NCBI GenBank assembly: GCA_040400605.1
Contig: JBBAPZ010000019.1
Span: 43,232 to 59,342, forward strand
Direction: 5' to 3'
Source of the DNA: Candidatus Sericytochromatia bacterium
GTDB lineage: Bacteria; Cyanobacteriota; Sericytochromatia; S15B-MN24; JAQBPE01
DNA: 16,111 bases
Of the stretch, positions 2,726-16,111 are shown piece by piece (within the stretch, counting starts at the first letter, position 1; each line of letters starts with the position of its first letter). The position numbers and the translations under genes were made by a program. A model generated the notes under the pieces. That model searched no databases and had not been told where the DNA came from. It worked only from the letters and a program-made list of their open reading frames with translations.

Positions 2726-3961
2726 TTACTTGTTGACTGTCGCACTGGCACCGGATGTCACGGTGGCGCCATTGATGGGCAAGGGCATTTTACAGACTGG
2801 CAACTCTGATGAATCATACGACGCAGCATACTCAGCGGGGTTCAAGACACCATCACCATCTGTATCCAAGGCCCGAAACCGTTCAGCATTCGCTTGACTC
2901 AAGCCCATTTGCCCTTCTTGCAAGCCCAACCACTCCGGCAAGCTCAAGACCCCATCCTGGTTGCGATCACGACGCTTGAACGCCTCATCACGGCGATCGC
3001 TCACCCACGGCAACGGCACCACCTGCACCCCGATGAACTCATCGATACCCAACATGCCATTGCCATCACGATCCAAACAACCAAACCACAGCCGCGCATC
3101 CAATATCGCTGGCGGCGATACCCCATCCGGCACCGGATACCACTCAATTGGTGACACCTCAATGGGTGCAGGAAACGGCTGCACAGCCGGCTTGCCACGG
3201 CGCCAGACACGATTTGACACAGTCTCCGCAGCAAAGGATCCAGGCGCCGGCACAACCGATGCGCTCGTCACTTGAGGCAATTCGTTGGTCCCATCGGGCG
3301 ACAGCATCGGCAAGTCATTGGTCACATCCGGCGCAGGAGCGACACCCGTGGCACAATCCAAAACCCGCTCACCGCTTGCAATCTCTTGATAAGGAAAGTA
3401 AGTGGCGAACTCTTCAAAGCGCAACTGCTTATCCCCATCAGCATCTGCAATCGCAAAGCCGTCGTGGTTCATCCGCAGACCCTTGCCTGGCGTATCATCA
3501 AAAGTAATGACTGCCGTCACCGCCCCCGTTCGCTTCAACGCCTGCACCCGCACCGGCAAAGCCGCAACCTGGCCCGCTTTGACCTGCGTTGCCTCTTCAC
3601 CTTCGCCAATCAGCGTGCCATTGGCATCATACACCTGCACCGCAAGCGTCACCTTGCCCACAGGCACCGCATCAAAGGTCTGCACCGCACCATTGCTTAA
3701 CTCGTTCCGACTCAACTTCCGCTTCATCGCATACTGGTTGCCACGTAAGGTCAAAGCCAAAGTCGCGAGATCATCACCAAGCGACAACACCCCATACGCC
3801 CGCTGGCCCAACGCCGCCACCTTCACCTGTAAAGAACCCTTGCCAGCACTCACCGTTGATGCCACGGGTTTGATCGCACCAACCGACAACCCAGGCACGC
3901 CACACCCCACCACCGACCCCACCATCAATGCCAAAACACCAAGTTTCACAACCTTGACCAT
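2726..3961 (-). CDS. Lipoprotein with an N-terminal beta-rich domain and four EF-hand Ca2+-binding loops
   Basis: Start reassigned to ATG 3961 (GGAGG at 3972-3968). Signal peptide MVKVVKLGVLALMVGSVVG|C. EF-hand loops: DADGDKQLRFEE, DRDGNGMLGIDE, DRNQDGVLSLPE, DTDGDGVLNPAE. Confidence 0.88.
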   Translation of the reverse strand: MVKVVKLGVLALMVGSVVGCGVPGLSVGAIKPVASTVSAGKGSLQVKVAALGQRAYGVLSLGDDLATLALTLRGNQYAMKRKLSRNELSNGAVQTFDAVPVGKVTLAVQVYDANGTLIGEGEEATQVKAGQVAALPVRVQALKRTGAVTAVITFDDTPGKGLRMNHDGFAIADADGDKQLRFEEFATYFPYQEIASGERVLDCATGVAPAPDVTNDLPMLSPDGTNELPQVTSASVVPAPGSFAAETVSNRVWRRGKPAVQPFPAPIEVSPIEWYPVPDGVSPPAILDARLWFGCLDRDGNGMLGIDEFIGVQVVPLPWVSDRRDEAFKRRDRNQDGVLSLPEWLGLQEGQMGLSQANAERFRALDTDGDGVLNPAEYAASYDSSELPVCKMPLPINGATVTSGASATVNK

Positions 3962-3993
3962 CGGACACCTCCTCATCACCTGCACCATCCGCC

Positions 3994-4467: not shown

Positions 4468-5940
4468 TTACGGGCGCCTGGTTGAAGCGTTTGGGGGCCG
4501 TGTGAGGGCTTCAAGTGCCTGTTTGGCGAGCTGTTGGCGAATCGGATTGTCGAGGCTTAAGGCGATACATTGGTTCCACGCTTCGCGCGCGCGTGTGCGA
4601 TCGCCCAGTTGCGCATAACAGCTTGCCAGTTTGGCACACAAGTCGCCATCCGTGGGTGTCAGCTCATACGCCTTTTTTAGCGGCTCCAGCGCATCTTTGT
4701 ATTTTTTTTGAACGAGGTAAACATCTCCCAAGTGTTTGAGACCCAGCAAATGGGTTTGCGTGAGGCTCAATGCTTGCAAAAAGGCAACTTCTGCGTCACG
4801 GTAGCGTTGCGTGGCTTGATGGGCCGTGCCGAGGTAAACAAAGTTATCCGCGCTGGGATTGGCTTCGGCTGCGCGTTTGAGATATTCAATCGCGTCAGGG
4901 AAGCGGCCTTTTCGAAGGCGCATTTGTCCAAGCGCCTCCAAAGCACCGGCTTGGGTGCGATCCAACGCCAAGGCTTTTTTGAAAGCTGACTCGGCTTCTT
5001 GCGTGCGTCCCAGTTGCAAACATGTTTGACCCTTGAGGGTGTGAACCCACGCATTGTCCGGTCCCAGAACAATCGCCTTGTCGTATTCTTCGAGCGCACG
5101 CTCCAGGTTACGCTGTTTCACCAGGATGTCGCCGAGTTTCTCATGCAGGCGTGGGTTGGCACGATCCTTGGCGATCGCTTCGTTCAACAGTGCTTCCGCT
5201 TGTGGATAATTCTGGGTTTGCTGTAATTGTTCTGCTCGCACGATTGGATTGTCGCGCGTGAAATTGTTGTCGTTGAGTACATAGGTGATCAAAGCCCCGC
5301 TCAACAGCATTAAAACCACCGGAATCGCGGCCCCCCAGACCCAGCCCACCTTGCCGTTGCCCGGCTTCTCACTGAAACGTTTCAGCACCGGAAAACGTGC
5401 TTCAAGCATTTCCACAAAACCATCCAAACGTTCCTGCACACGTTCCAGGACCGTGTCCGCGTTTGGTGTGCCGCCTTTGAGCGTCTGGCTGCACTCGTGA
5501 CACCGCGCCTGATCCAGTCGTTGGGTGTTGCGCACACGATTCTTTGACTGACAACGCGGGCAACTCACAATCGCGCCCGTTGGCGCGCGCGGCGACACAG
5601 GTGGCGTTTTGGACGCCTGTTGCGGGGGAGCCGGGCGCGGCTGGGGCCTGGGTGGCGGCGATTGCGGTGGCTGCGGAGAGGCTGTCTCACCTGCCGCCCG
5701 GCCGGGCGCCCGGTCTTGCTTGAAATACTGCGCATCGTAAGCGGCACGCCGCTCCGTGGAGGAGAGCACCTGATACGCTTCGGTGATCAAACTAGCCGTC
5801 TGTGCGTCGCCGCCACGATCCGGATGCTGCCCAAGATCCAGCATCAGCGCACGATAAGCCTTCTTGATCACCGCCAGAGTCGCCTTGGGGTGAACCTGCA
5901 AAATCTCATAGTAGTCTGGCACGAAACGCTGACTGGACAT
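4468..5940 (-). CDS. DnaJ (J-domain) / TrxC-like zinc ribbon / transmembrane / TPR-repeat protein
   Basis: PDYYEILQV...IKKAYR...HPDRGG J-domain with intact HPD (5826-5818); Pro-rich linker; CPRCQSKNRV...ARCHEC (5562-5491); hydrophobic helix WVWGAAIPVVLMLLSGALITYVL; about 6-7 TPR motifs (e.g. HEKLGDILVKQRNLERALEEYDKAIVLGPDN). Start uncertain: ATG 5940, or GTG 6021, which has an AGGAGAGGG SD. Confidence 0.9.
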   Translation of the reverse strand: MSSQRFVPDYYEILQVHPKATLAVIKKAYRALMLDLGQHPDRGGDAQTASLITEAYQVLSSTERRAAYDAQYFKQDRAPGRAAGETASPQPPQSPPPRPQPRPAPPQQASKTPPVSPRAPTGAIVSCPRCQSKNRVRNTQRLDQARCHECSQTLKGGTPNADTVLERVQERLDGFVEMLEARFPVLKRFSEKPGNGKVGWVWGAAIPVVLMLLSGALITYVLNDNNFTRDNPIVRAEQLQQTQNYPQAEALLNEAIAKDRANPRLHEKLGDILVKQRNLERALEEYDKAIVLGPDNAWVHTLKGQTCLQLGRTQEAESAFKKALALDRTQAGALEALGQMRLRKGRFPDAIEYLKRAAEANPSADNFVYLGTAHQATQRYRDAEVAFLQALSLTQTHLLGLKHLGDVYLVQKKYKDALEPLKKAYELTPTDGDLCAKLASCYAQLGDRTRAREAWNQCIALSLDNPIRQQLAKQALEALTRPPNASTRRP

Positions 5941-6440
5941 GACTTCTTTCTGAACGGGTTGGCGCGCTGTTACCCAATCCCGAAACCAAACGGGAAAATC
6001 GGCGCGTGGACAACCAAGCACCTTATTCCCTCTCCTGTCGGTTTTTGACAGACAAACCTTGCTTGAAACGAACGAACCATTTGACACGAAACAACTGCTG
6101 ACTGTCCTCGTCTCGTGTGCAAACGACCGCCCAACCCTTCAGCCAAAATCCGTGGGTTACAAAGAACGCCTCAACTGAGCCGGCGTCTCGAACAAGCATC
6201 ATCGCCAACGCAACAGCGTATCGACACACCACACGGTACATGCTTGCCTGCACGCCCGTTACGTTCACTTTGCGCCATTCATACTGGTCGTCGTGCCCAT
6301 GTTTGCACCCGTCATACACCCTTGACTCACGCCAGTGTGTTTCGTTCAAGCTGCCCGATGCAGCGTGGTTGACGACGGCTTAGTCTGCCAATGGCCCAAA
6401 ACGGTTCACCAGAACGGTTGATTTGAAAGTGAGGTTGGCT

Positions 6441-7493
6441 ATGCTCGCGGAACATCAAATCCTCCAAAAACACCCGCAGTCCACACGACAGCCCGAATTG
6501 CCGCATGCGGCAGGCGTCGCGCCACTGGATGAGTCCCAAGCCTATCACCTGCAATTACACGGCGCACTGGATGCCGCCGTGGCCACCCGGTTGCGACACA
6601 CACTCAGACAAAAAATGGCGCACGACACGCCACCTGAACAACTAATTCTGAATCTCGCGTCCGTGCGACGCATCGACGCGCATGGTCTCGGTGCCTTGCT
6701 GTACCTCCGTGACTTGTGCAGCCGGCATCACTGCCATCTAACCCTTCAGGCCCCCTCTCCGGCGGTTGTGAAGATTTTGCTTAAAACGCGCCTGGCAGAC
6801 GCTTTTCGTATGACGCCACCGGTCGCGTCGCACCGGCGCGACGCGACGTGGCATCACAGACTGGATCGGTGGCATACGTGTTTGGATCAATTCTTGGCGG
6901 CTGTGGGGCTTGTGGCACTCTTTCCGTTGTTGGCCCTGATTGCGTTGGCCATCAAATTGGACTCCCCCGGCCCTGTTTTTTTTCGCCAGCCGCGCATGGG
7001 TTCAGCGAAGGCAGCGCTGACCGATGGTCCGATCGAGGGCCAGATTTTTTCCATTATCAAGTTTCGAACGATGGTGCCGGATGCGGAAAAGATGTTGTCT
7101 GAGCTGCAGGCGCGGAACCAGTATGCCGACGGCGCGTTTTTCAAGTTGCGCGACGATCCCAGGATCTCTCGCGTGGGGCGTTTTTTGAGGCGGACATCCT
7201 TGGATGAATTGCCGCAACTGATCAATGTGTTAAAGGGGCAAATGCGTCTGGTAGGCAATCGGCCCCTGCCGTTGTACGAGGCGGAGGCTTTGCTTGAGCC
7301 GTGGCAACGGGTGCGTTTTCTGGCGCCGGCCGGCATCACGGGCTTGTGGCAGATCAGCGGCCGCAGCGATACCGACGCCATGGAACGTCTGGTTCTGGAC
7401 ACCTACTACAGTGCCACGCGCACCTGGTTGGGTGACTGGTGGATTCTTGTGAAGACCCTGCGTGTGTTTTTTAGGCAGAACGGTGCCCGTTAG
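6441..7493 (+). CDS. STAS (anti-anti-sigma-like) domain fused to a priming polyprenyl-phosphate phosphoglycosyltransferase (Bac_transf family)
   Basis: ATG 6441 after GAGGT. N-terminal LQLHGALDAA...LNLASVRRIDAHGLGALL...VVKILLKTRL is a STAS pattern. C-terminal IKLDSPGPVFFRQ, KFRTM, DDPRISRVGRFLRRTSLDELPQLINVLKGQMRLVGNRP and GITGLWQISGR are the PGT signature. Confidence 0.95.
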   Translation: MLAEHQILQKHPQSTRQPELPHAAGVAPLDESQAYHLQLHGALDAAVATRLRHTLRQKMAHDTPPEQLILNLASVRRIDAHGLGALLYLRDLCSRHHCHLTLQAPSPAVVKILLKTRLADAFRMTPPVASHRRDATWHHRLDRWHTCLDQFLAAVGLVALFPLLALIALAIKLDSPGPVFFRQPRMGSAKAALTDGPIEGQIFSIIKFRTMVPDAEKMLSELQARNQYADGAFFKLRDDPRISRVGRFLRRTSLDELPQLINVLKGQMRLVGNRPLPLYEAEALLEPWQRVRFLAPAGITGLWQISGRSDTDAMERLVLDTYYSATRTWLGDWWILVKTLRVFFRQNGAR

Positions 7494-7517: not shown

Positions 7518-8222
7518 ATGCGCCAGTATTTTTGGACTGTTCTACTGATCGCGGGTGTTGTGGCAGCCACAGGCAGCCAGGCTTTCGCGCTTACGCCTGA
7601 CCCGTGGGCCTATGACCCCGCGTTGACGCTCGACGCCGCCTTGCAGACGGCCAGGCAGAACAACCCGGATATTGTGGGGGCGCGTGCCAAGCTTAACCAG
7701 GCCCGCTTGGAGGCGCAGGATCAAGACAATTGGTGGGCGCGTTTGTTCAAGGCGAACATCAATCACAATTTTCTGGGCGCTCCCGTTGGTCAAACGGTGA
7801 ATGCGGATGGCGTGGCGTTGCCCACAGCGGCCATTGGCCTCATCGTGAACCTGTCGGATTTGCTCAACGGTCCTCGCGCCAAGCAACGGGGGCTGGAGGG
7901 GGTCACGATCGCCGAGGCCGAACTTAACCGCACCATCGCGGATGTGTTAACCCAGGTAGCCAATGCGTACCAGAACGTGCAGATTGCGCGTGAACGCCAA
8001 CGCCTCGCCAAAGATACCGTATCGGTGGCGCACGCCGATCTCCATGTTGGTCAACGTCAATTCGCCAATGGCTTGGGCACCGCCAACACGATCCTGGGTT
8101 TGCGACTCGCGACCGAACGCGCATCCGGTGAACAGGCAGCTGCCGAGCTTGCAGTGCAGGTGAACTGGATTGCCCTCAAGACCTTGCTGGGTGCCGCGAC
8201 AACGGCCACCCCCACCCGATGA
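7518..8222 (+). CDS. Short TolC/OEP-family outer membrane protein (single repeat, 234 aa)
   Basis: AAAGGAG SD; Sec signal ending SQAFA; LTLDAALQTARQNNPDI, QVANAYQNV, RQFANGLGT and ALKTLLG are OEP-type motifs. Confidence 0.8.
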   Translation: MRQYFWTVLLIAGVVAATGSQAFALTPDPWAYDPALTLDAALQTARQNNPDIVGARAKLNQARLEAQDQDNWWARLFKANINHNFLGAPVGQTVNADGVALPTAAIGLIVNLSDLLNGPRAKQRGLEGVTIAEAELNRTIADVLTQVANAYQNVQIARERQRLAKDTVSVAHADLHVGQRQFANGLGTANTILGLRLATERASGEQAAAELAVQVNWIALKTLLGAATTATPTR

Positions 8223-8243
8223 CACCCAGAGAGGAAGCCTGCG

Positions 8244-9962
8244 ATGTCTGCCGCCACTGACCCCCAAGCCCGCGCCCTTGCTCTGTATGAGGCTCATTTG
8301 CCCTGGTTCGAACACTGGATTGCCAAGCAGCGCATGGCGGCTTCCGGCCTCGCGGTGCACGACCGGATTTTGGGCTTGCACGCGTTGTATCAGGCGGCAC
8401 AAGACTGGGTGGCTCAAACAGCCGACGTGCGTGAGGAACATTTCGTGGATTTCGCGCAGGGGCGCTTGATCGCTGCCTTTCAGGCGGCGGATCGCGTATC
8501 GGCCAACATCGCGGAAAAATCGACTGTTTTGTCGGTTTGGCAGGAACCGCGCGATACGCAAGCGTTGGCACGGCAGACGTCTTATCTGTTGGCTGAACCT
8601 TTGTCACTCCCTCGTGATGAGGTGGGGTCTCTCGGCGGCTTGCTGACGCACTGGCGGATGTTGCTGGGGCGATATTGGGCTTTGATTCTGAGCTTGGTAC
8701 TGGTTTTTGAGTGTGGCATTGCGGCGTTGACCCTGACGGTTCCGCCAACTTACCTGGCGAGCACGACGCTGAATACGGGCATGGGGCGGCGCGATCCGCT
8801 CAGCGGCGGTGGTGACTGGTTTACGCAAGGTGTGGCGATCGCCAACATCACCGAACTCCTCAAAAGCCGCAGCGTTTTGCAAGAAACCCTCGAAAGTCTC
8901 AAGTGGCCGCAATCGCCCGAGGACCTGCAAAAACGCATCACCATCACACGCTTGGGGCAGGCGGGCTTTTTGCGCATTGACGCTGAAGCCGAAGGTGCGG
9001 CGGATGCGGCTAATCTCGCAAACACGTTGGTACGGGTCTTCCTGGACATCTACGCATCCCATCAATCCAGTGACGCCCGTTCCAATCAGGCTTTCTTCAT
9101 CGGTCAGGTCCGGGTGGCCCGGCAGCGCCTGGATCGCGCGGAGGGTGCCTTGCGCGCGTTCCGCGCCAGGGCGCTGCCCGAACTCCACGCAGCGGTTCCA
9201 CAGCGTGTCAACGATTTGCTCTCACAACGCGAAGAAGCCCTTAGCACACTCTCAGCCGCTGAAGCAGGACTCAAAAGCCTGCAAGAACAATGGCGCCAAT
9301 TGCAGAACAGCCCCGAAGCCAAACGTGCCCTCGTTCACCAAGGTACGCTCGATACCCCCTTGGAACGCGTCCGTGAACTCGAAAACAATCTGCAAGACGC
9401 CCGCGAGATTTACGGACCACGCGCTGACATTGTCAAACTGTTAACCCAACAATTGACCCGTGCCCGGCAAGGCCTGGCGGTCGCGCGCGACGAAAGCGAA
9501 AGCAACCGTCCCGCCTTTGCGGAGACCAGGACACGGCTGGCACAACTGCGTACCGACGTGGCCATGGCCCGGGCGCGGTTGCAGGCGATCGACCGCAGCC
9601 TGGCCACCTGGCAACCACAAGCAGGCCTCGCGGGAACGCAGCAGGTCACCCACGAACAGCTAGCGCGTGAAGTCAAAGTCGCGGAAACCCAGTACCTTGA
9701 ACTGCAAGCGCAACTCGGGCAATCGCGCCTTCAGGCGCAAGGGGCACAAAACCTGCCCATCTCGGTCATCGATCCCGCCACGGCACCCGAACAGCCAACC
9801 AGCAACAAACTCGCACTCAAACTGGCACTTGGTGCGCCTGTGGCACTGGCACTCGGGCTCGGCTTGGCCCATTTTCTAGCGCGTCCCCGACGCAGACGCA
9901 CGCATGACCCCAAGGATGTTCCGGCCGGAGTCGATGGGCACGCTGCGGAGCAAGCGTCGTGA
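8244..9962 (+). CDS. Polysaccharide co-polymerase / chain-length determinant (Wzz/GumC-like), no C-terminal kinase
   Basis: GAGGA SD. TM1 near residue 144 followed by PPTYLASTTL and ELLKSRSVL. Long coiled coil, then VIDPATAPEQP before TM2 and a short basic tail. Confidence 0.9.
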   Translation: MSAATDPQARALALYEAHLPWFEHWIAKQRMAASGLAVHDRILGLHALYQAAQDWVAQTADVREEHFVDFAQGRLIAAFQAADRVSANIAEKSTVLSVWQEPRDTQALARQTSYLLAEPLSLPRDEVGSLGGLLTHWRMLLGRYWALILSLVLVFECGIAALTLTVPPTYLASTTLNTGMGRRDPLSGGGDWFTQGVAIANITELLKSRSVLQETLESLKWPQSPEDLQKRITITRLGQAGFLRIDAEAEGAADAANLANTLVRVFLDIYASHQSSDARSNQAFFIGQVRVARQRLDRAEGALRAFRARALPELHAAVPQRVNDLLSQREEALSTLSAAEAGLKSLQEQWRQLQNSPEAKRALVHQGTLDTPLERVRELENNLQDAREIYGPRADIVKLLTQQLTRARQGLAVARDESESNRPAFAETRTRLAQLRTDVAMARARLQAIDRSLATWQPQAGLAGTQQVTHEQLAREVKVAETQYLELQAQLGQSRLQAQGAQNLPISVIDPATAPEQPTSNKLALKLALGAPVALALGLGLAHFLARPRRRRTHDPKDVPAGVDGHAAEQAS

Positions 9963-11422
9963 ACAAGGTCTTGCTCGGTGGTCTGACATTTGGTGTCGGC
10001 GGCGTGTTGTGCGTGGCGGTTGCCGAATTGCGTTTCACCTGGCTGGTTGCGGTCGCCACGCTGGCTTTGCTGCTCTGGATACTTGGTCGCATTCACGTTG
10101 GCTTGGCGTTATTGCTTGTGTATGCCTCACTGGTTGGTTGGCTCATCCGCATGGTGAGCGTGCATCAGGCAGGACCGTTTGGTGTGGCCATTGACGCGTT
10201 GTTTGTGGCCATGGGGTTACGCTTGCTCTGGGATGTGTCGCACCGGCGCGACGTGCAGCGCTTACGCAGCGCACTGACGCCGTTGGTGCTGATTTTTGTT
10301 GGTTTTCAGTGTTTGGAGGCGTTTAACCCGGCGTCGCCGCATTGGGCGTTGGGTGTCACGGGCTTGCGCCACACGCTGCGCGCGTTGGGTTTTTTTCTGG
10401 CGTTGTATTACCTGTCCGATGTCCGTCGTATCGACACCTGGTGTCGGTGGTGGTTGGGGACGTGTGCGTTTGTCGCCCTGTATGGGATGTTTCAGCATTA
10501 TCACGGGTTGCTGTGGCAAGAGATGCAGTGGCTGTATGAGGAGGGTAACGCGCAGACGCACATTCTCGGCGGCTATGTGCGGATTTTTTCGACCGTTGGC
10601 GATGCGGCAACTTTTGGCTTTTTGATGGGGATGGCTAGCCTCGTGTGGGTGGCGCACGCTCTCCATGACAGGGGTTGGCGTGCGCTGATGTGCGTGGTGG
10701 CAGCCGTGCCCTTTTTGTATGCGATGGTTTTGTCGTATTCCAGGGGGCCGATTCTCGCTTGGTGTGCGGGTGTGGTTGCGATGTTGGTGCTGACGAGGCG
10801 GTGGTTCTTTTTGGGGCTGATTGCCTCGATGCTTGGATTGATTGGCGTGGGTGCGGGGTTGGCGCCTGGTGTTCATCCGTTGTTGGATCGGGTGCGCACG
10901 GCGTCTCGCCCGTTGGAGGATGCCAGTTTCATGGTACGCGTCAATTACTTGAGTACCCACCTGGCGGACATTGTGAATCGACCGTTCGGGCACGGCCTTA
11001 ACACGTCGGGCGGTGGTGCCACGAAGTGGGTGGATCCCCTCAGTGCACGCCGTTCGGTGGTGGGTGTGCCCACTGACAATTACTATTTCAAGATCGCGCT
11101 GGAATTGGGTTGGGTCGGATTATTGCTGTGGTTGGTGCTACAAGGGCGCATCTTGCAGGTAGCTTGGGTGGTGTATCGACGGGGCCCACCGAGCGCTTTG
11201 AGTGGCTGGGTCGCGGGGTTGTTTGGGGTGTGGGTGGCTGTTGCTGTTGGCGCGGTGTCCAATGACTATCCCATTCAGAAGCCGATCGCGGAGTTTTTGT
11301 GGTTGTCATTGGGTGTGTTGGGGCATTTGCATGCGACGCACGGGGTGATGGTTGACCGGATTGCGGGTGGTGCTCGACCGAGGAATGCAAAACATGAAAA
11401 TCACGTTAATCGCGTCAGATGA
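9959..11422 (+). CDS. O-antigen ligase / Wzy_C-family polytopic membrane protein, probable polysaccharide polymerase
   Basis: GTGA overlap with the upstream gene. More than 10 hydrophobic segments. RIFSTVGD, LSYSRG, RPFGHG and DNYYFKIALELGWVGLLL motifs. Confidence 0.88.
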   Translation: MNKVLLGGLTFGVGGVLCVAVAELRFTWLVAVATLALLLWILGRIHVGLALLLVYASLVGWLIRMVSVHQAGPFGVAIDALFVAMGLRLLWDVSHRRDVQRLRSALTPLVLIFVGFQCLEAFNPASPHWALGVTGLRHTLRALGFFLALYYLSDVRRIDTWCRWWLGTCAFVALYGMFQHYHGLLWQEMQWLYEEGNAQTHILGGYVRIFSTVGDAATFGFLMGMASLVWVAHALHDRGWRALMCVVAAVPFLYAMVLSYSRGPILAWCAGVVAMLVLTRRWFFLGLIASMLGLIGVGAGLAPGVHPLLDRVRTASRPLEDASFMVRVNYLSTHLADIVNRPFGHGLNTSGGGATKWVDPLSARRSVVGVPTDNYYFKIALELGWVGLLLWLVLQGRILQVAWVVYRRGPPSALSGWVAGLFGVWVAVAVGAVSNDYPIQKPIAEFLWLSLGVLGHLHATHGVMVDRIAGGARPRNAKHENHVNRVR

Positions 11423-12584
11423 GGTCACGGCACCTTTGTACCGGGTGCGTGCGTTGGCTCGGATGTTGCAGCGCGCATTTGATGTGGAGGTTTTGGGTTT
11501 CAGTTTTGAATCTGGCAAGGGGGACCCACGTTCACCGCGGGATTTCCCCTATACCGCCATCCCGGTGCCGCCGGGCCGTTCCTGGGTGGATGCGGAGCGG
11601 GAATTGCGCGCCCGCATCACGGGCGACTTGCTGTATGCCATGAAGCCTCGTCCCAGTTCGTTTGGGGTCGCATTGCGCCACAGGGCGTCGTCGGGCTTAC
11701 CGGTGGTGGTTGACATTGATGATTGGGAATTGTTCATGATTCATCCCTGGAGTCGTTATACGCTCAAGAACATGGCTTATGCGTTGGCGCGTCTGGATTA
11801 TCCCAATCATTATCTGGCGACGTGGGCACTGGATAAGCGCATCCGCAGTGCCGACGGCGTGACGGTGGTCAGTTCATTTCTGCAGGCGCGTTACGGGGGA
11901 GCTTTGACGCCCCAGTATGTGGATATTGATACCTTTGATCCCGCGGTTCAGCCACGTGAGGGTTTGCGATCGCAACTACGCTGTGAGGGGCAACACGTGA
12001 TCGTGTTCGCGGGTATTGCCCAGCCTGGCAAGGGGGTGGGGGAGATTATCCAGGCGTTGCAATTGTTGGATGACGCGATGCAAAACTGGCAATTGCTGAT
12101 TGTCGGGCCTCAAACGCCCTATGCGCGCGCGGTGGCCCAATGCGATGAGCGCGTGCGACTGATTGGGATGTACCCACCGTCTGCGACGCCCCAGTTCTTG
12201 GCGATCGCCGACCTCATCGTGCTCCCGCAGCAACCGGTGCCCGTCGCGCTGGGACAGATGCCCATGAAACTGTACGAAGCCATGGCCATGGGCCTGCCCA
12301 TCGTCGCGACGGCCGTCTCGGATATCCCTGAACTGCTGGATGGTTGCGGCTTGGTGGTGCCGCCGGGCGATCGCCCCGCGCTTGCCCGCGCCATCGCCAG
12401 TCTCCTTTGTAACCCCGCTTTGGCGCGTCGTTTGGGACGCGCGGCCCGGGCCCGCATCACAACCCATTATAGCTGCGACATCGGTGCGGATGAACTCAAG
12501 GCTTATTTCACCAGCGTGGCCCGCTTGATGCCCCACCGTAAATCCGGCGCAGGCCTAACACCCCTTTCGGCACCCTGCACCTGA
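11394..12584 (+). CDS. Glycosyltransferase family 4 (GT-B)
   Basis: Start reassigned to ATG 11394 (MKITLIAS; GAGGA at 11380). Motifs VFAGIAQPGKG and PMKLYEAMAMGLPIVATAVSDIPELL...GLVVPPGD. Confidence 0.93.
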   Translation: MKITLIASDEVTAPLYRVRALARMLQRAFDVEVLGFSFESGKGDPRSPRDFPYTAIPVPPGRSWVDAERELRARITGDLLYAMKPRPSSFGVALRHRASSGLPVVVDIDDWELFMIHPWSRYTLKNMAYALARLDYPNHYLATWALDKRIRSADGVTVVSSFLQARYGGALTPQYVDIDTFDPAVQPREGLRSQLRCEGQHVIVFAGIAQPGKGVGEIIQALQLLDDAMQNWQLLIVGPQTPYARAVAQCDERVRLIGMYPPSATPQFLAIADLIVLPQQPVPVALGQMPMKLYEAMAMGLPIVATAVSDIPELLDGCGLVVPPGDRPALARAIASLLCNPALARRLGRAARARITTHYSCDIGADELKAYFTSVARLMPHRKSGAGLTPLSAPCT

Positions 12585-12673: not shown

Positions 12674-13495
12674 ATGCCCGTTTTGTCCATCGTGGTGGTG
12701 AACTGGAACACGCGCCAGTTGCTTGCCCAATGTTTGCGCAGCGTGCAGCTAGAAACGCTGATTTCACATGAGATTTGGGTGGTGGACAACGGTTCCACCG
12801 ATGGCAGTGTCGAGATGCTTCGTGCGGAGTTTCCGGGCGTTCAGGTGATCGCCAATCAAGAGAATCGCGGGTTTGCCGCAGCCAACAACCAGGCGTTGGC
12901 CCGGTGTCAGGGGCAATACCTTCTGTTGCTGAACTCTGACACGATCGTTTTGTCGGGCGCGTTGGATCGCATGGTCGCAGCCATGCACGCCCATCCGACC
13001 ATCGGTGCCCTCGGCTGCCGCCTGCTCAATGTTGATGGATCCCTGCAAGCGTCTGCCCACACCTTTTACAATTCGTGGCGATCGCTCATCGAAAACCGCC
13101 TGATGGCCCGCTTGTGGCCTTTCAGGCACAGCCGCACACCCTTTCTGACTTTTTGGGACCACAGCCACCCCCGCTCTGTCGATTGGGTCAGTGGCGCGGC
13201 CTTGCTCATCAGGCGCGAGGTCTTGAAAACGGTTGGCCCGCTTGATGAGCAGTTTTTTATGTATGGTGAAGAGATCGACTGGCAAATGCGCATCAAAAAA
13301 GCCGGCTATCAAGTGTGGTTCAATCCGAACGCCAGCATCATCCACTTGGGTGGTGGCAGCGCGAAACAGGCCAAACAGGCCATGAATCGCATCGAACTGC
13401 AAAGTCGTGATGCCTTGATTCGCAAGCACTATCCGCCACGTACCCAGTCTTTTTATCGATTCAAGCGTTCCCTCGCCAGCCGTTTGCAGGGTTGA
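12674..13495 (+). CDS. Glycosyltransferase family 2 (GT-A, WbbL/rhamnosyltransferase-like group)
   Basis: GGAGG SD; SIVVVNWN, VVDNGSTDGS, NRGFAAANN, LLLNSD, DWVSGAALL, FFMYGEEIDW. Confidence 0.95.
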   Translation: MPVLSIVVVNWNTRQLLAQCLRSVQLETLISHEIWVVDNGSTDGSVEMLRAEFPGVQVIANQENRGFAAANNQALARCQGQYLLLLNSDTIVLSGALDRMVAAMHAHPTIGALGCRLLNVDGSLQASAHTFYNSWRSLIENRLMARLWPFRHSRTPFLTFWDHSHPRSVDWVSGAALLIRREVLKTVGPLDEQFFMYGEEIDWQMRIKKAGYQVWFNPNASIIHLGGGSAKQAKQAMNRIELQSRDALIRKHYPPRTQSFYRFKRSLASRLQG

Positions 13496-13499
13496 CCCA

Positions 13500-14696
13500 A
13501 TGCTGATGGCTGTTGTAAACGCCCTGCTGATCGGGGTGCAAGGTTTCGTGCTGGCGGGTGTCTGTCACCTGCTTTGGCCCCTGCTTGTCATCAGGCGCCG
13601 CGAACCGGTCAGACATTGGACCGTTTTGGGGCGATCGCCCCGTATCGCCGTCCTGGTCGCGGCCCGCAACGAAGCATCTGTCATCAACACCTTGCTGACG
13701 GCCTTGGCGTCGCAGAGTTTGTCGCGTCACTGTTTCGAGGTGCATGTGGTGGCGGATGGGTGTTCTGATCAAACGGCTGCGATCGCCCGTCGCGCCGGTG
13801 CGACGGTCTGGGAGCGTCCGATGATGCCCAGCAGCACCAAAGGCGAGGCGCTTACGTGGTTATGGTCCCAACTGGACCCTGCGGCGTGGCACGGAGTGGT
13901 CCTGTTTGATGCGGACAATGCGCCGGATCCGGAATGTCTCGCCGAGTTGACGCGGGCTTTGGAAGGTGGGGCGCAGGTGGTGCAATGCTTGCGAATTCCA
14001 GGGCATGGTGAGGCGGCTGGGGCGGCAGGCTGGGATGGTTTGGGCGAGTTGTGCCAGCAGTGGATTGGGGCCGCGGGGCGGGCGCGTTTGGGTATGAGTG
14101 TGCCGATTCTGGGGTCGGGGGTTGCGTTTCGCACGGGTTGTTTTCAGTGGTTGCTTGGGCGATCGCACCGGGTGACCTTGGTTGAGGATGCGGATTGGAT
14201 GGTGGAATTGGCGCTGGCGGGTATTCGGGTGCAGTGGTGTCCAGAGGCGCGGGTGCGGGATTGCAAGACGGCAAACTGGGTGGCCTTGCGCAGCCAGCGC
14301 CGCCGTTGGTTGGGTGGGCGAGTCCGTTTGCTGCAAGCGCGCGGGTGGGCGCTTGTGTGGGCTGGCTTGCGCCACGGGCGCTTTGGCGCGTGGGATGTGT
14401 TGTGGCAGTTGCTGGCTCCGCCGCGGATGGTGCTGGCACTTGGGGTGTTTGGTTTGGCGTTCGGCGGTTACCTGGGAATGCCCGTGTGGCCGCTCTGGCC
14501 CTGGGTTGCGCTCGCTTTGCTGCTGTATGTCGCAGTGGGTGTGTATGGGGCGGGTAACGCGCGGCCATCCAGACGCGAGGGGTGGGTGATGCTGTTGGCC
14601 CTGCCACGCTTTGTTTGGGAGCTGTTGAGTGCCGCTTTACACGCGTGGTCCGGGCGCGCGGTGGGGTGGCAGGTGACGCCGAAGGGGAGGGACTAG
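13500..14696 (+). CDS. Membrane-bound GT2, cellulose-synthase/PgaC-like (D, DxD, ED, QxxRW)
   Basis: N-terminal TM; VAARNEA, ADGCSD, KGEAL, FDADN (13908), VED (14181), QRRRW (14295-14309); C-terminal TM helices ending WQVTPK. Confidence 0.92.
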   Translation: MLMAVVNALLIGVQGFVLAGVCHLLWPLLVIRRREPVRHWTVLGRSPRIAVLVAARNEASVINTLLTALASQSLSRHCFEVHVVADGCSDQTAAIARRAGATVWERPMMPSSTKGEALTWLWSQLDPAAWHGVVLFDADNAPDPECLAELTRALEGGAQVVQCLRIPGHGEAAGAAGWDGLGELCQQWIGAAGRARLGMSVPILGSGVAFRTGCFQWLLGRSHRVTLVEDADWMVELALAGIRVQWCPEARVRDCKTANWVALRSQRRRWLGGRVRLLQARGWALVWAGLRHGRFGAWDVLWQLLAPPRMVLALGVFGLAFGGYLGMPVWPLWPWVALALLLYVAVGVYGAGNARPSRREGWVMLLALPRFVWELLSAALHAWSGRAVGWQVTPKGRD

Positions 14697-14697
14697 G

Positions 14698-15267
14698 GTG
14701 CAGGAATGGGGCCAAAAGTTGACGCAGGCTTGGCGCTACATGCTGAAGCGGCTCAACGCCTGGTGGGTGTTTCGGCGGTGCGATGCGGTGGGCCGCGGGG
14801 CACGTTTGCGTGGGAAGCCGCATATTGAGCGCAATGGCGGGCGGATTCACCTAGGGCAAGATGTTTGTATTTACAGCTATCTGGCGACGGTTGAACTGTA
14901 TGCGGGGCCGGGTGCCGAATTGGTGCTCGGGGATGGGGTCTTTGTGAATAATGGTGTGATCCTGTCGGCCAGTCAGGCCATTCACGTCGGTGCGCGAAGT
15001 ATGATTGGGCCCCATTGCGTGCTGATGGACAACGACTTTCATCGGGTGGAGCCGCAGGAGCGCCACGCGGGTGGGGTGTGTGCCCCGATCACCTTGGAGG
15101 AGGATGTCTGGCTCGGTACCCGCGCAATCATTCTAAAGGGGGTGCGGATTGGGCGAGGCAGTGTGGTGGCGGCAGGTAGTGTGGTCACCAAAGATGTTCC
15201 GGCGGGGGTATTGGTTGCGGGGATTCCTGCGCGTGTGGTGCGTACGCTCACCCCGTCCGTCAGTTGA
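14698..15267 (+). CDS. Hexapeptide-repeat (left-handed beta-helix) O-acyltransferase
   Basis: GTG start 1 nt after the previous stop. DNDFH, PITLEEDVWLGTRAIILKGVRIGRGSVVAAGSVVTKDVP and GIPARVVR. Confidence 0.95.
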   Translation: MQEWGQKLTQAWRYMLKRLNAWWVFRRCDAVGRGARLRGKPHIERNGGRIHLGQDVCIYSYLATVELYAGPGAELVLGDGVFVNNGVILSASQAIHVGARSMIGPHCVLMDNDFHRVEPQERHAGGVCAPITLEEDVWLGTRAIILKGVRIGRGSVVAAGSVVTKDVPAGVLVAGIPARVVRTLTPSVS

Positions 15268-15713: not shown

Positions 15714-16111
15714 ATGCGGCGACCGGTCGGCTGGATGACCCTGGCAATATTGGTCGCGTATGGTTGTGCGACGCCACAGACGTTGCGTCCTGTACCTGTG
15801 AGACCCCGCGCGGGATTGAGTGCTTCTGTCCCACCCGCGTCACAAGCGGTTGTCACCGCGTCGAACTCGTCTGCACGGAATCGTGCGACTGTTGGGATCC
15901 TGAAGCAACCGGCCAGCGGCACGGTTGCCCTGAAAGGGACGCTGAAACTGGATGCGGGCTATTTGGTAAATGCCGGGGCCGGCAAGGTGATGCTTGCCGG
16001 GCAACAGGGAGCACGCATCGCCGCAATTGGTGGCGGCAGACTCGTCGGTAATGATGCGGCGTCATTGGTTGGTAATGATGCGGCGTCACTGGTTGGTAAT
16101 GATGCGGCGTC
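15714..16111 (+). CDS. Lipoprotein with LVGNDAAS tandem repeats, 5' part only (runs off the right edge)
   Basis: Not in the ORF track; translated by hand from ATG 15714 (GGGAGGGG at 15701-15708): MRRPVGWMTLAILVAYG|CATPQ...ILKQPASGTVALKGTLKLDAGYLVNAGAG...RLVGNDAASLVGNDAASLVGNDAAS, with no stop before the edge. Confidence 0.87.
   Translation, partial: MRRPVGWMTLAILVAYGCATPQTLRPVPVRPRAGLSASVPPASQAVVTASNSSARNRATVGILKQPASGTVALKGTLKLDAGYLVNAGAGKVMLAGQQGARIAAIGGGRLVGNDAASLVGNDAASLVGNDAA
16041..16111 (+). repeat. 24-bp in-frame tandem repeat, at least 3 copies (truncated by the window end)
   Basis: CTCGTCGGTAATGATGCGGCGTCA / TTGGTTGGTAATGATGCGGCGTCA / CTGGTTGGTAATGATGCGGCGTC; all differences between copies are synonymous. 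Confidence 0.95.

Follow-up and report, generated by a model that had tools for sequence, protein, structure and literature searches.

A single-repeat TolC-like protein encoded beside a Wzc-like co-polymerase in a Sericytochromatia bacterium: a candidate outer-membrane duct for polysaccharide

We analysed a stretch of 16,111 nucleotides, hereafter the window, from a contig of a Candidatus Sericytochromatia bacterium (GenBank assembly GCA_040400605.1, contig JBBAPZ010000019.1). The following genes and domains, all on the forward strand, were recognised in its central and right-hand parts. The short TolC-like (OEP) protein at the centre of this study is called the short OEP.

6423..7493, forward strand: priming phosphoglycosyl transferase with an N-terminal STAS domain (Pfam; relatives)
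7518..8222, forward strand: single-repeat TolC-like (OEP) protein, 234 aa (Pfam, structural model and alignments)
8244..9962, forward strand: polysaccharide co-polymerase (Wzz/GNVR), 572 aa (Pfam and structural model)
8262..8534, forward strand: degenerate sigma-70 region-2-like domain, the cytoplasmic N-terminus of the co-polymerase (family profile and Pfam)
9351..9506, forward strand: helix-turn-helix of the co-polymerase, residues 370-421, predicted to lie where its arm is farthest from the base
9959..11422, forward strand: Wzy_C (PF04932) membrane protein, whose start overlaps the co-polymerase stop (Pfam)
11394..12584, forward strand: GT4 glycosyltransferase (Pfam)
12674..13495, forward strand: GT2 glycosyltransferase (Pfam)
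13500..14696, forward strand: membrane GT2 glycosyltransferase (Pfam), with EpsU as best NCBIfam match, under its cut-off
14698..15267, forward strand: hexapeptide-repeat acetyltransferase (Pfam)

As the original prediction had it, the short OEP gene lies between the priming transferase (STAS and Bac_transf domains, upstream) and the co-polymerase (Wzz/GNVR, downstream), both of which are parts of the Wzx/Wzy pathway. The Wzy_C protein is likely the polymerase of the operon, although PF04932 alone cannot tell polymerases from ligases and Wzy_C also spans oligosaccharyltransferases. The 15 window proteins that were scanned gave no match to the Poly_export, SLBB, ABC or HlyD families, in agreement with the earlier statement that no OPX protein, ABC transporter or membrane-fusion protein is encoded there. 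No flippase gene was found in the cluster or at the 16 related loci that we fetched. Scans for promoters and terminators stayed at chance level (1 vs 2.8 and 13 vs 13.3, respectively). In relatives, STAS is a separate upstream gene (four relatives were tested for STAS) and the N-terminus of the transferase is of the NTP-transferase/hexapeptide type; at 6423-7493, STAS is fused and that N-terminus is missing, a lineage-specific rearrangement.

Several genes flank the operon. A DnaJ-TPR membrane protein is encoded divergently from it (4468-6087, minus strand) and occupies the same position in 11 of the 16 related loci, so that it may belong to the system. Further upstream on the minus strand are a predicted lipoprotein with several EF-hand motifs (2726-3988) and, at 1377-2148, an NTase_sub_bind/HepT-like gene and, after it, a probable minimal nucleotidyltransferase without a Pfam match, a pair that looks like a HEPN-MNT toxin-antitoxin. 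At the right-hand end, a lipoprotein-like gene with many tandem short-peptide repeats and no Pfam match (15714-16111, plus strand) runs on into the adjoining stretch (L035), and a related N-terminus begins at position 401 on the minus strand.

The short OEP gene carries an AAAGGAG motif 7 nt 5′ of its ATG and ends in TGA, and the next ATG, at 8244, lies 21 nt downstream. Pfam analysis of the 234-aa protein returned a single PF02321 stretch, from residue 38 to 225, that covers the whole profile (1-187/187, E 8e-16). These features bear out the description of a protein with one set of OEP motifs, its own Shine-Dalgarno sequence and a clean end, for which one PF02321 domain had been anticipated. 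A likely signal peptide without cysteine, recognised by reading the sequence, spans about residues 1-24 and is followed by helices (38-70), a predicted beta-hairpin (73-112) and a long helical hairpin (112-224), which holds the tip motif R180-x-F182-x-x-G185. The two strands singled out earlier, FKANINHNF and AAIGLIVNL, correspond to residues 77-85 and 104-112. Both align with the first two strands of SilC, and hydrophobic and polar residues alternate along them in 52 sequences, with small or polar residues facing the predicted lumen. In the same 52 sequences the tip is strongly conserved (R180 and G185 in 52/52, F182 in 48/52).

An AlphaFold model built from 38 sequences (pLDDT 82, pTM 0.67) has the helices of one TolC repeat, with the strands of the beta-hairpin unformed in the monomer (pLDDT 49-57 across residues 81-110). 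Foldseek and VIA searches with this model ranked TolC and OprM first, matched to one repeat; the best VIA match (9tg4_A, residues 201-417; Z 12.0, rmsd 3.7 over 171 residues) is modest for a helical protein. A PDB search with the single short OEP sequence gave no significant match. PF02321, Foldseek and VIA agree on the repeat sequence and fold of an OMF. The two tandem repeats of an OMF protomer are absent, with one stretch in 234 aa and homologues of 214-285 aa, and Pfam found neither the Poly_export nor the SLBB domain of OPX proteins such as Wza. The short OEP would be OMF-like in its working, yet falls outside the two-repeat definition, and it is not an OPX.

The length of the protein is a conserved property. 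In a profile search, 38 of 41 matches measured 229-277 aa, the next match having an E value of 7e-7, and in an exhaustive search at E<=1e-30, 12 of 14 representatives measured 214-285 aa, the other two being a fragment of 132 aa and a read-through frame of a transferase. The closest homologues are therefore single-repeat proteins; full-length TolCs in their place would have spoken against the original prediction. On contigs from two other sequencing runs (X3 and X4) the gene is uninterrupted and free of indels. Of the 32 differences listed within it, 26 fall at third codon positions (12 more lie in the stretch outside the listing). The gene is thus not an assembly artefact. The genome of the host encodes four ordinary two-repeat TolCs and a single short copy. 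Since no second short match was obtained anywhere in it, we rejected a split gene, and the earlier remark that no second half lies nearby holds for the whole genome. A metagenome scan yielded one locus; tblastn searches of plasmids with a homologue and with the co-polymerase yielded no match.

The co-polymerase has two membrane helices (residues 145-165 and 523-546) and a Wzc-like periplasmic base with a helical arm (252-500), the arrangement of PCP-2a/Wzc proteins, in which two helices enclose a Wzz-type base and a long arm. Its model matched Wzc best (9r68_I, E 4e-11). The helix-turn-helix at residues 370-421, with invariant L383, D385, L400 and Q403, is in the model a candidate docking tip. 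A fused BY-kinase is absent, the protein ending about 26 residues past the second helix in 16/16 aligned members, and Pfam found no kinase family among the neighbouring genes.

At the other end of the co-polymerase, a profile of the N-terminus matched FliA (E 4e-6), sigma factors making up 53 of the 60 matches shown, and Pfam detected Sigma70_r2 in 6 of 16 members, with a best E of 0.0065. These profiles show homology to sigma-70 region 2 over the first 100 residues. Regions 3 and 4 and a soluble form are absent: a disordered linker and then the membrane helix follow the region-2-like part. An ESM Atlas search with this domain gave no usable match. The core-binding and promoter-melting residues of the sigma motifs are presumably not kept, which makes a docking role likelier than one in transcription.

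We examined the distribution of the locus in 47 genomes of the host's class, which belongs to the cyanobacterial phylum; one homologue bears the label 'Cyanobacteria bacterium'. Matches to the short OEP (E<=2e-58) coincide with those to the orthologous co-polymerase (E<=9e-188), both proteins being found in the identical 17 of 47 genomes. These genomes are kin, so that the match does not represent 17 independent events; a single gain together with a small number of losses may account for it. Among the 16 loci fetched, the co-polymerase gene comes directly after the short OEP gene in 15 and the transferase gene before it in 14; at the remaining loci the contig ends there. No OPX match was obtained at any of the 16.

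Neighbours of the short OEP in the ESM Atlas were short PF02321 clusters, of which those listed were mostly from Bacteroidota. A profile-profile comparison of the local and the Bacteroidota short OEPs gave 99.5% (E 1e-22), which alone speaks for OEP homology only. A profile of 12 Bacteroidota sequences scored a median of 65 bits for 52 local proteins vs 34 bits for 232 TolC halves. The reverse test (37 vs 44) did not discriminate, but the TolC halves had been picked with the profile used in that reverse test. An xLGxLL motif at the strand exit occurs in 46/52, 8/14 and 6/232 of the sequences compared (52 being the local proteins and 232 the TolC halves), and an LFDG-type exit in 0/52 local proteins vs 82/232 TolC halves.

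Two trees, both unrooted and with long branches, agree with this division. In a 66-row tree, 34 single-repeat proteins split from 32 TolC halves (100/97), with the N and C halves each grouped. In a 76-row tree for which the halves were chosen differently, 24 single-repeat proteins again fell on one side (SH-aLRT 99), C halves grouped at 84 and N halves were not resolved. Profiles and trees place the single-repeat OEPs of the two phyla in one family. Since both trees set them apart from TolC halves, they do not look like recent halvings, and an origin before the duplication that gave rise to TolC is allowed by these sequence comparisons. Two further complete single-repeat OEPs (P0127 and P0165) lie outside the local and Bacteroidota branches, which suggests carriers in further phyla.

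The Bacteroidota sample comprised 13 loci; a fourth short frame, at a contig end (L188), was left out of the count. Eleven of the 13 belong to clusters that also encode Wzc-like and Wzy_C proteins, five directly before wzc and six after wzy, so that the 'short TolC + GumC' neighbourhoods that the original prediction mentioned for Bacteroidota do exist. The short OEP gene is several kb from wzc in six of the 13 and unlinked in two. The genomes with these two orphan copies encode a member of the same Wzc family in an unlinked cluster, on a contig without OPX. The Bacteroidota clusters resemble the one studied here in encoding the same protein family next to a comparable set of genes, and one of the loci has STAS close by. 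They differ from it in that their co-polymerases measure 721-729 aa and have a kinase-like tail, whereas ours measures 572 aa and has the sigma-2-like N-terminus, and in that a flippase is often linked (6 of 13 loci), unlike here. At L185:10595-16986, one Bacteroidota cluster has genes for type IX secretion (adhesin, PorP, OmpA-family) with the priming transferase on one side of them and the short OEP on the other.

In the Wzx/Wzy pathway, a lipid-linked unit is passed to the flippase, is polymerised by Wzy and becomes a chain guided by the co-polymerase. We consider that the short OEP probably acts at the end of such a pathway, as a TolC-like duct made of identical subunits, which docks on the arm of the co-polymerase and takes the place of Wza. 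The transferases would assemble the lipid-linked repeat unit, and a flippase, unlinked here but with a candidate on contig C4 of the same genome, would flip it. The Wzy_C protein would then polymerise the units while the co-polymerase ring guides the chain. As a single unit, with its two strands, is too small to close a barrel, the short OEP must oligomerise to make a pore; it would self-assemble, probably as six copies with twelve strands, into an outer-membrane duct. Six copies would rebuild the geometry of TolC, as extrapolated from the two-repeat TolC trimer described in PMC8277102. The tip of the short OEP would meet that of the co-polymerase arm directly, and the polymer would leave through the lumen of the duct. 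Such a duct fits in length as a substitute for Wza: OprM is given as about 140 Å long in PMC8277102, and Wza as 140 Å in the Wza-Wzc complex of PMC12881504. A complex prediction with three OEP chains (residues 34-228) and three co-polymerase arms (330-465) scored 0.00 with the fold of the partner uncertain, and is uninformative either way. The weakest step of the explanation is the regulatory one, for which we can only guess that the STAS and sigma-2-like domains form a docking pair replacing the missing tyrosine kinase.

The candidate flippase is a stand-alone Wzx-type protein, unlinked to the locus (L223:5912-7510). Its orthologues occur in the seven carriers of the host's family, not in the non-carrier G037, whose genome is small, and weakly in the non-carrier G010; in the ten carriers outside the family none was found at E 1e-30. 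Because Wzy_C proteins may also be ligases or oligosaccharyltransferases and the 16 loci have no linked flippase, a long exported polymer is only putative.

That no OPX protein takes part is less straightforward. Homologous clusters do not carry an OPX gene as a rule, given its absence from the 16 related loci and from the surroundings of the 13 Bacteroidota loci, and to this extent the proposed OPX-independent route stands. It is weakened by the OPX genes found elsewhere in nearly all carriers: Poly_export genes occur in 24 of 26 genomes of the order, including 15 of 16 carriers, and in 13/13 Bacteroidota carriers, where they are on a different contig or separated from the locus by 0.5 Mb or more. 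An unlinked OPX might therefore export the polymer or bridge the periplasm, the short OEP being an outer-membrane pore or accessory of a three-part translocon, like the EpsX-type barrels that work with class 3 OPX proteins. The best support for this reading, which we regard as unlikely, comes from the host itself. It has two OPX genes outside the window, a large one beside Wzz on contig C56 and an orphan of 252 aa on contig C1 (L033:9459-10217) with Poly_export and SLBB domains only, for which tblastn found no other Wzc-type partner in the genome. The class 3 median given in PMC9603273, 256 aa, is near the size of the orphan. However, orthologues of the orphan OPX are present in 8/8 genomes of the host's family, including the non-carrier G037, and in 0/10 carriers of two other families; it does not track with the short OEP locus, which within the family is followed better by the unlinked flippase. 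Moreover, both OPX genes of one complete genome (G046, 100% complete) adjoin co-polymerases within their own clusters, which leaves the third co-polymerase, at the short OEP locus, without one. A TolC-like duct by itself also spans about the height of Wza. Against our preferred reading, on the other hand, the single, large OPX of another nearly complete genome (G055, 99%) has no Wzz match on its 11-kb contig.

A bolder and likewise improbable form of our preferred reading would take the single-repeat OEPs for a surviving branch of pre-duplication TolC that, in several phyla, is a third kind of exit for Wzy polysaccharides. Without the constraint of three times two repeats, eight copies might then build a 16-stranded duct matching a co-polymerase octamer, with the sigma-2/STAS pair regulating in place of the tyrosine kinase.

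The short OEP could also serve a non-polymer function, as a channel through which a modifying enzyme or glycoprotein is exported via an unlinked adaptor and transporter, or as an envelope strut that anchors the assembly machine, in an operon that may glycosylate protein or lipid. The conserved residues of its tip are those of adaptor contact, the ambiguity of Wzy_C and the lack of a linked flippase fit such a role, and with four two-repeat TolCs in the genome adaptors are probably available. We nevertheless find it a shade more doubtful than participation of an unlinked OPX, as the short OEP strictly co-occurs with the co-polymerase orthologue, a long Wzc-like arm normally serves an outer-membrane partner, and the scanned window proteins include no adaptor or transporter family. 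Finally, a truncated or decaying TolC fragment present in the operon by chance, which the long branch of the window protein (0.97) and its 43 bits against the Bacteroidota-only profile might suggest, is highly improbable, being ruled out as a pseudogene by the length kept in 38 homologues, the kept gene order, the third-position differences and the spread of one family across phyla.

If the preferred reading is correct, Wzx/Wzy polysaccharides would have an additional exit route, a TolC-like duct docked straight on the co-polymerase, which would also operate in culturable Bacteroidota such as Mucilaginibacter gossypii (G301 cluster), where knockouts are possible. A natural single-repeat TolC would open the long-assumed pre-duplication form to structural work on gating and copy number. 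In the titles and abstract openings of the literature searched (subscription papers being outside its scope), no single-repeat TolC and no pairing of TolC with a co-polymerase was described.

The short OEP shares with the PF02321 proteins TolC, OprM, CusC and SilC the repeat fold, a predicted amphipathic hairpin and the tip motif. These proteins have two repeats and an LFDG-type exit, whereas the short OEP has one repeat and xLGxLL, and its cluster is without an adaptor or an RND, ABC or MFS transporter. The Wza-Wzc translocon as presented in PMC12881504 is similar in that the co-polymerase matches Wzc best, is encoded by the adjoining gene and would meet an outer component of similar height; it differs in that our cluster has no Poly_export/SLBB protein and no tyrosine kinase, with a sigma-2-like domain instead. 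The exits set out in the main text of PMC9603273 for Wzx/Wzy systems are OPX alone or OPX with a porin, and the word TolC does not occur in that text. The second kind, a class 3 OPX with a barrel of 16-18 strands (Myxococcus WzaX/S/B), would have in common with our system the Wzx/Wzy pathway and a beta-barrel exit through the outer membrane, but in the Myxococcus case of PMC9603273 a single-chain porin works with a linked OPX, and here a two-strand OEP unit is found with no linked OPX. TolC-type ducts have been proposed for polysaccharide exit in two further systems: Sinorhizobium beta-glucan requires full-length TolC (BgsA-BgsB-TolC; PMC13438883), and cyanobacterial XcsAB-TolC is put forward as a model (PMC12430437). 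As described in those papers, both are synthase-dependent and use an HlyD-type adaptor and a full-length, unlinked TolC, whereas the system proposed here would depend on Wzy and combine a co-polymerase with a single-repeat protein of its own.
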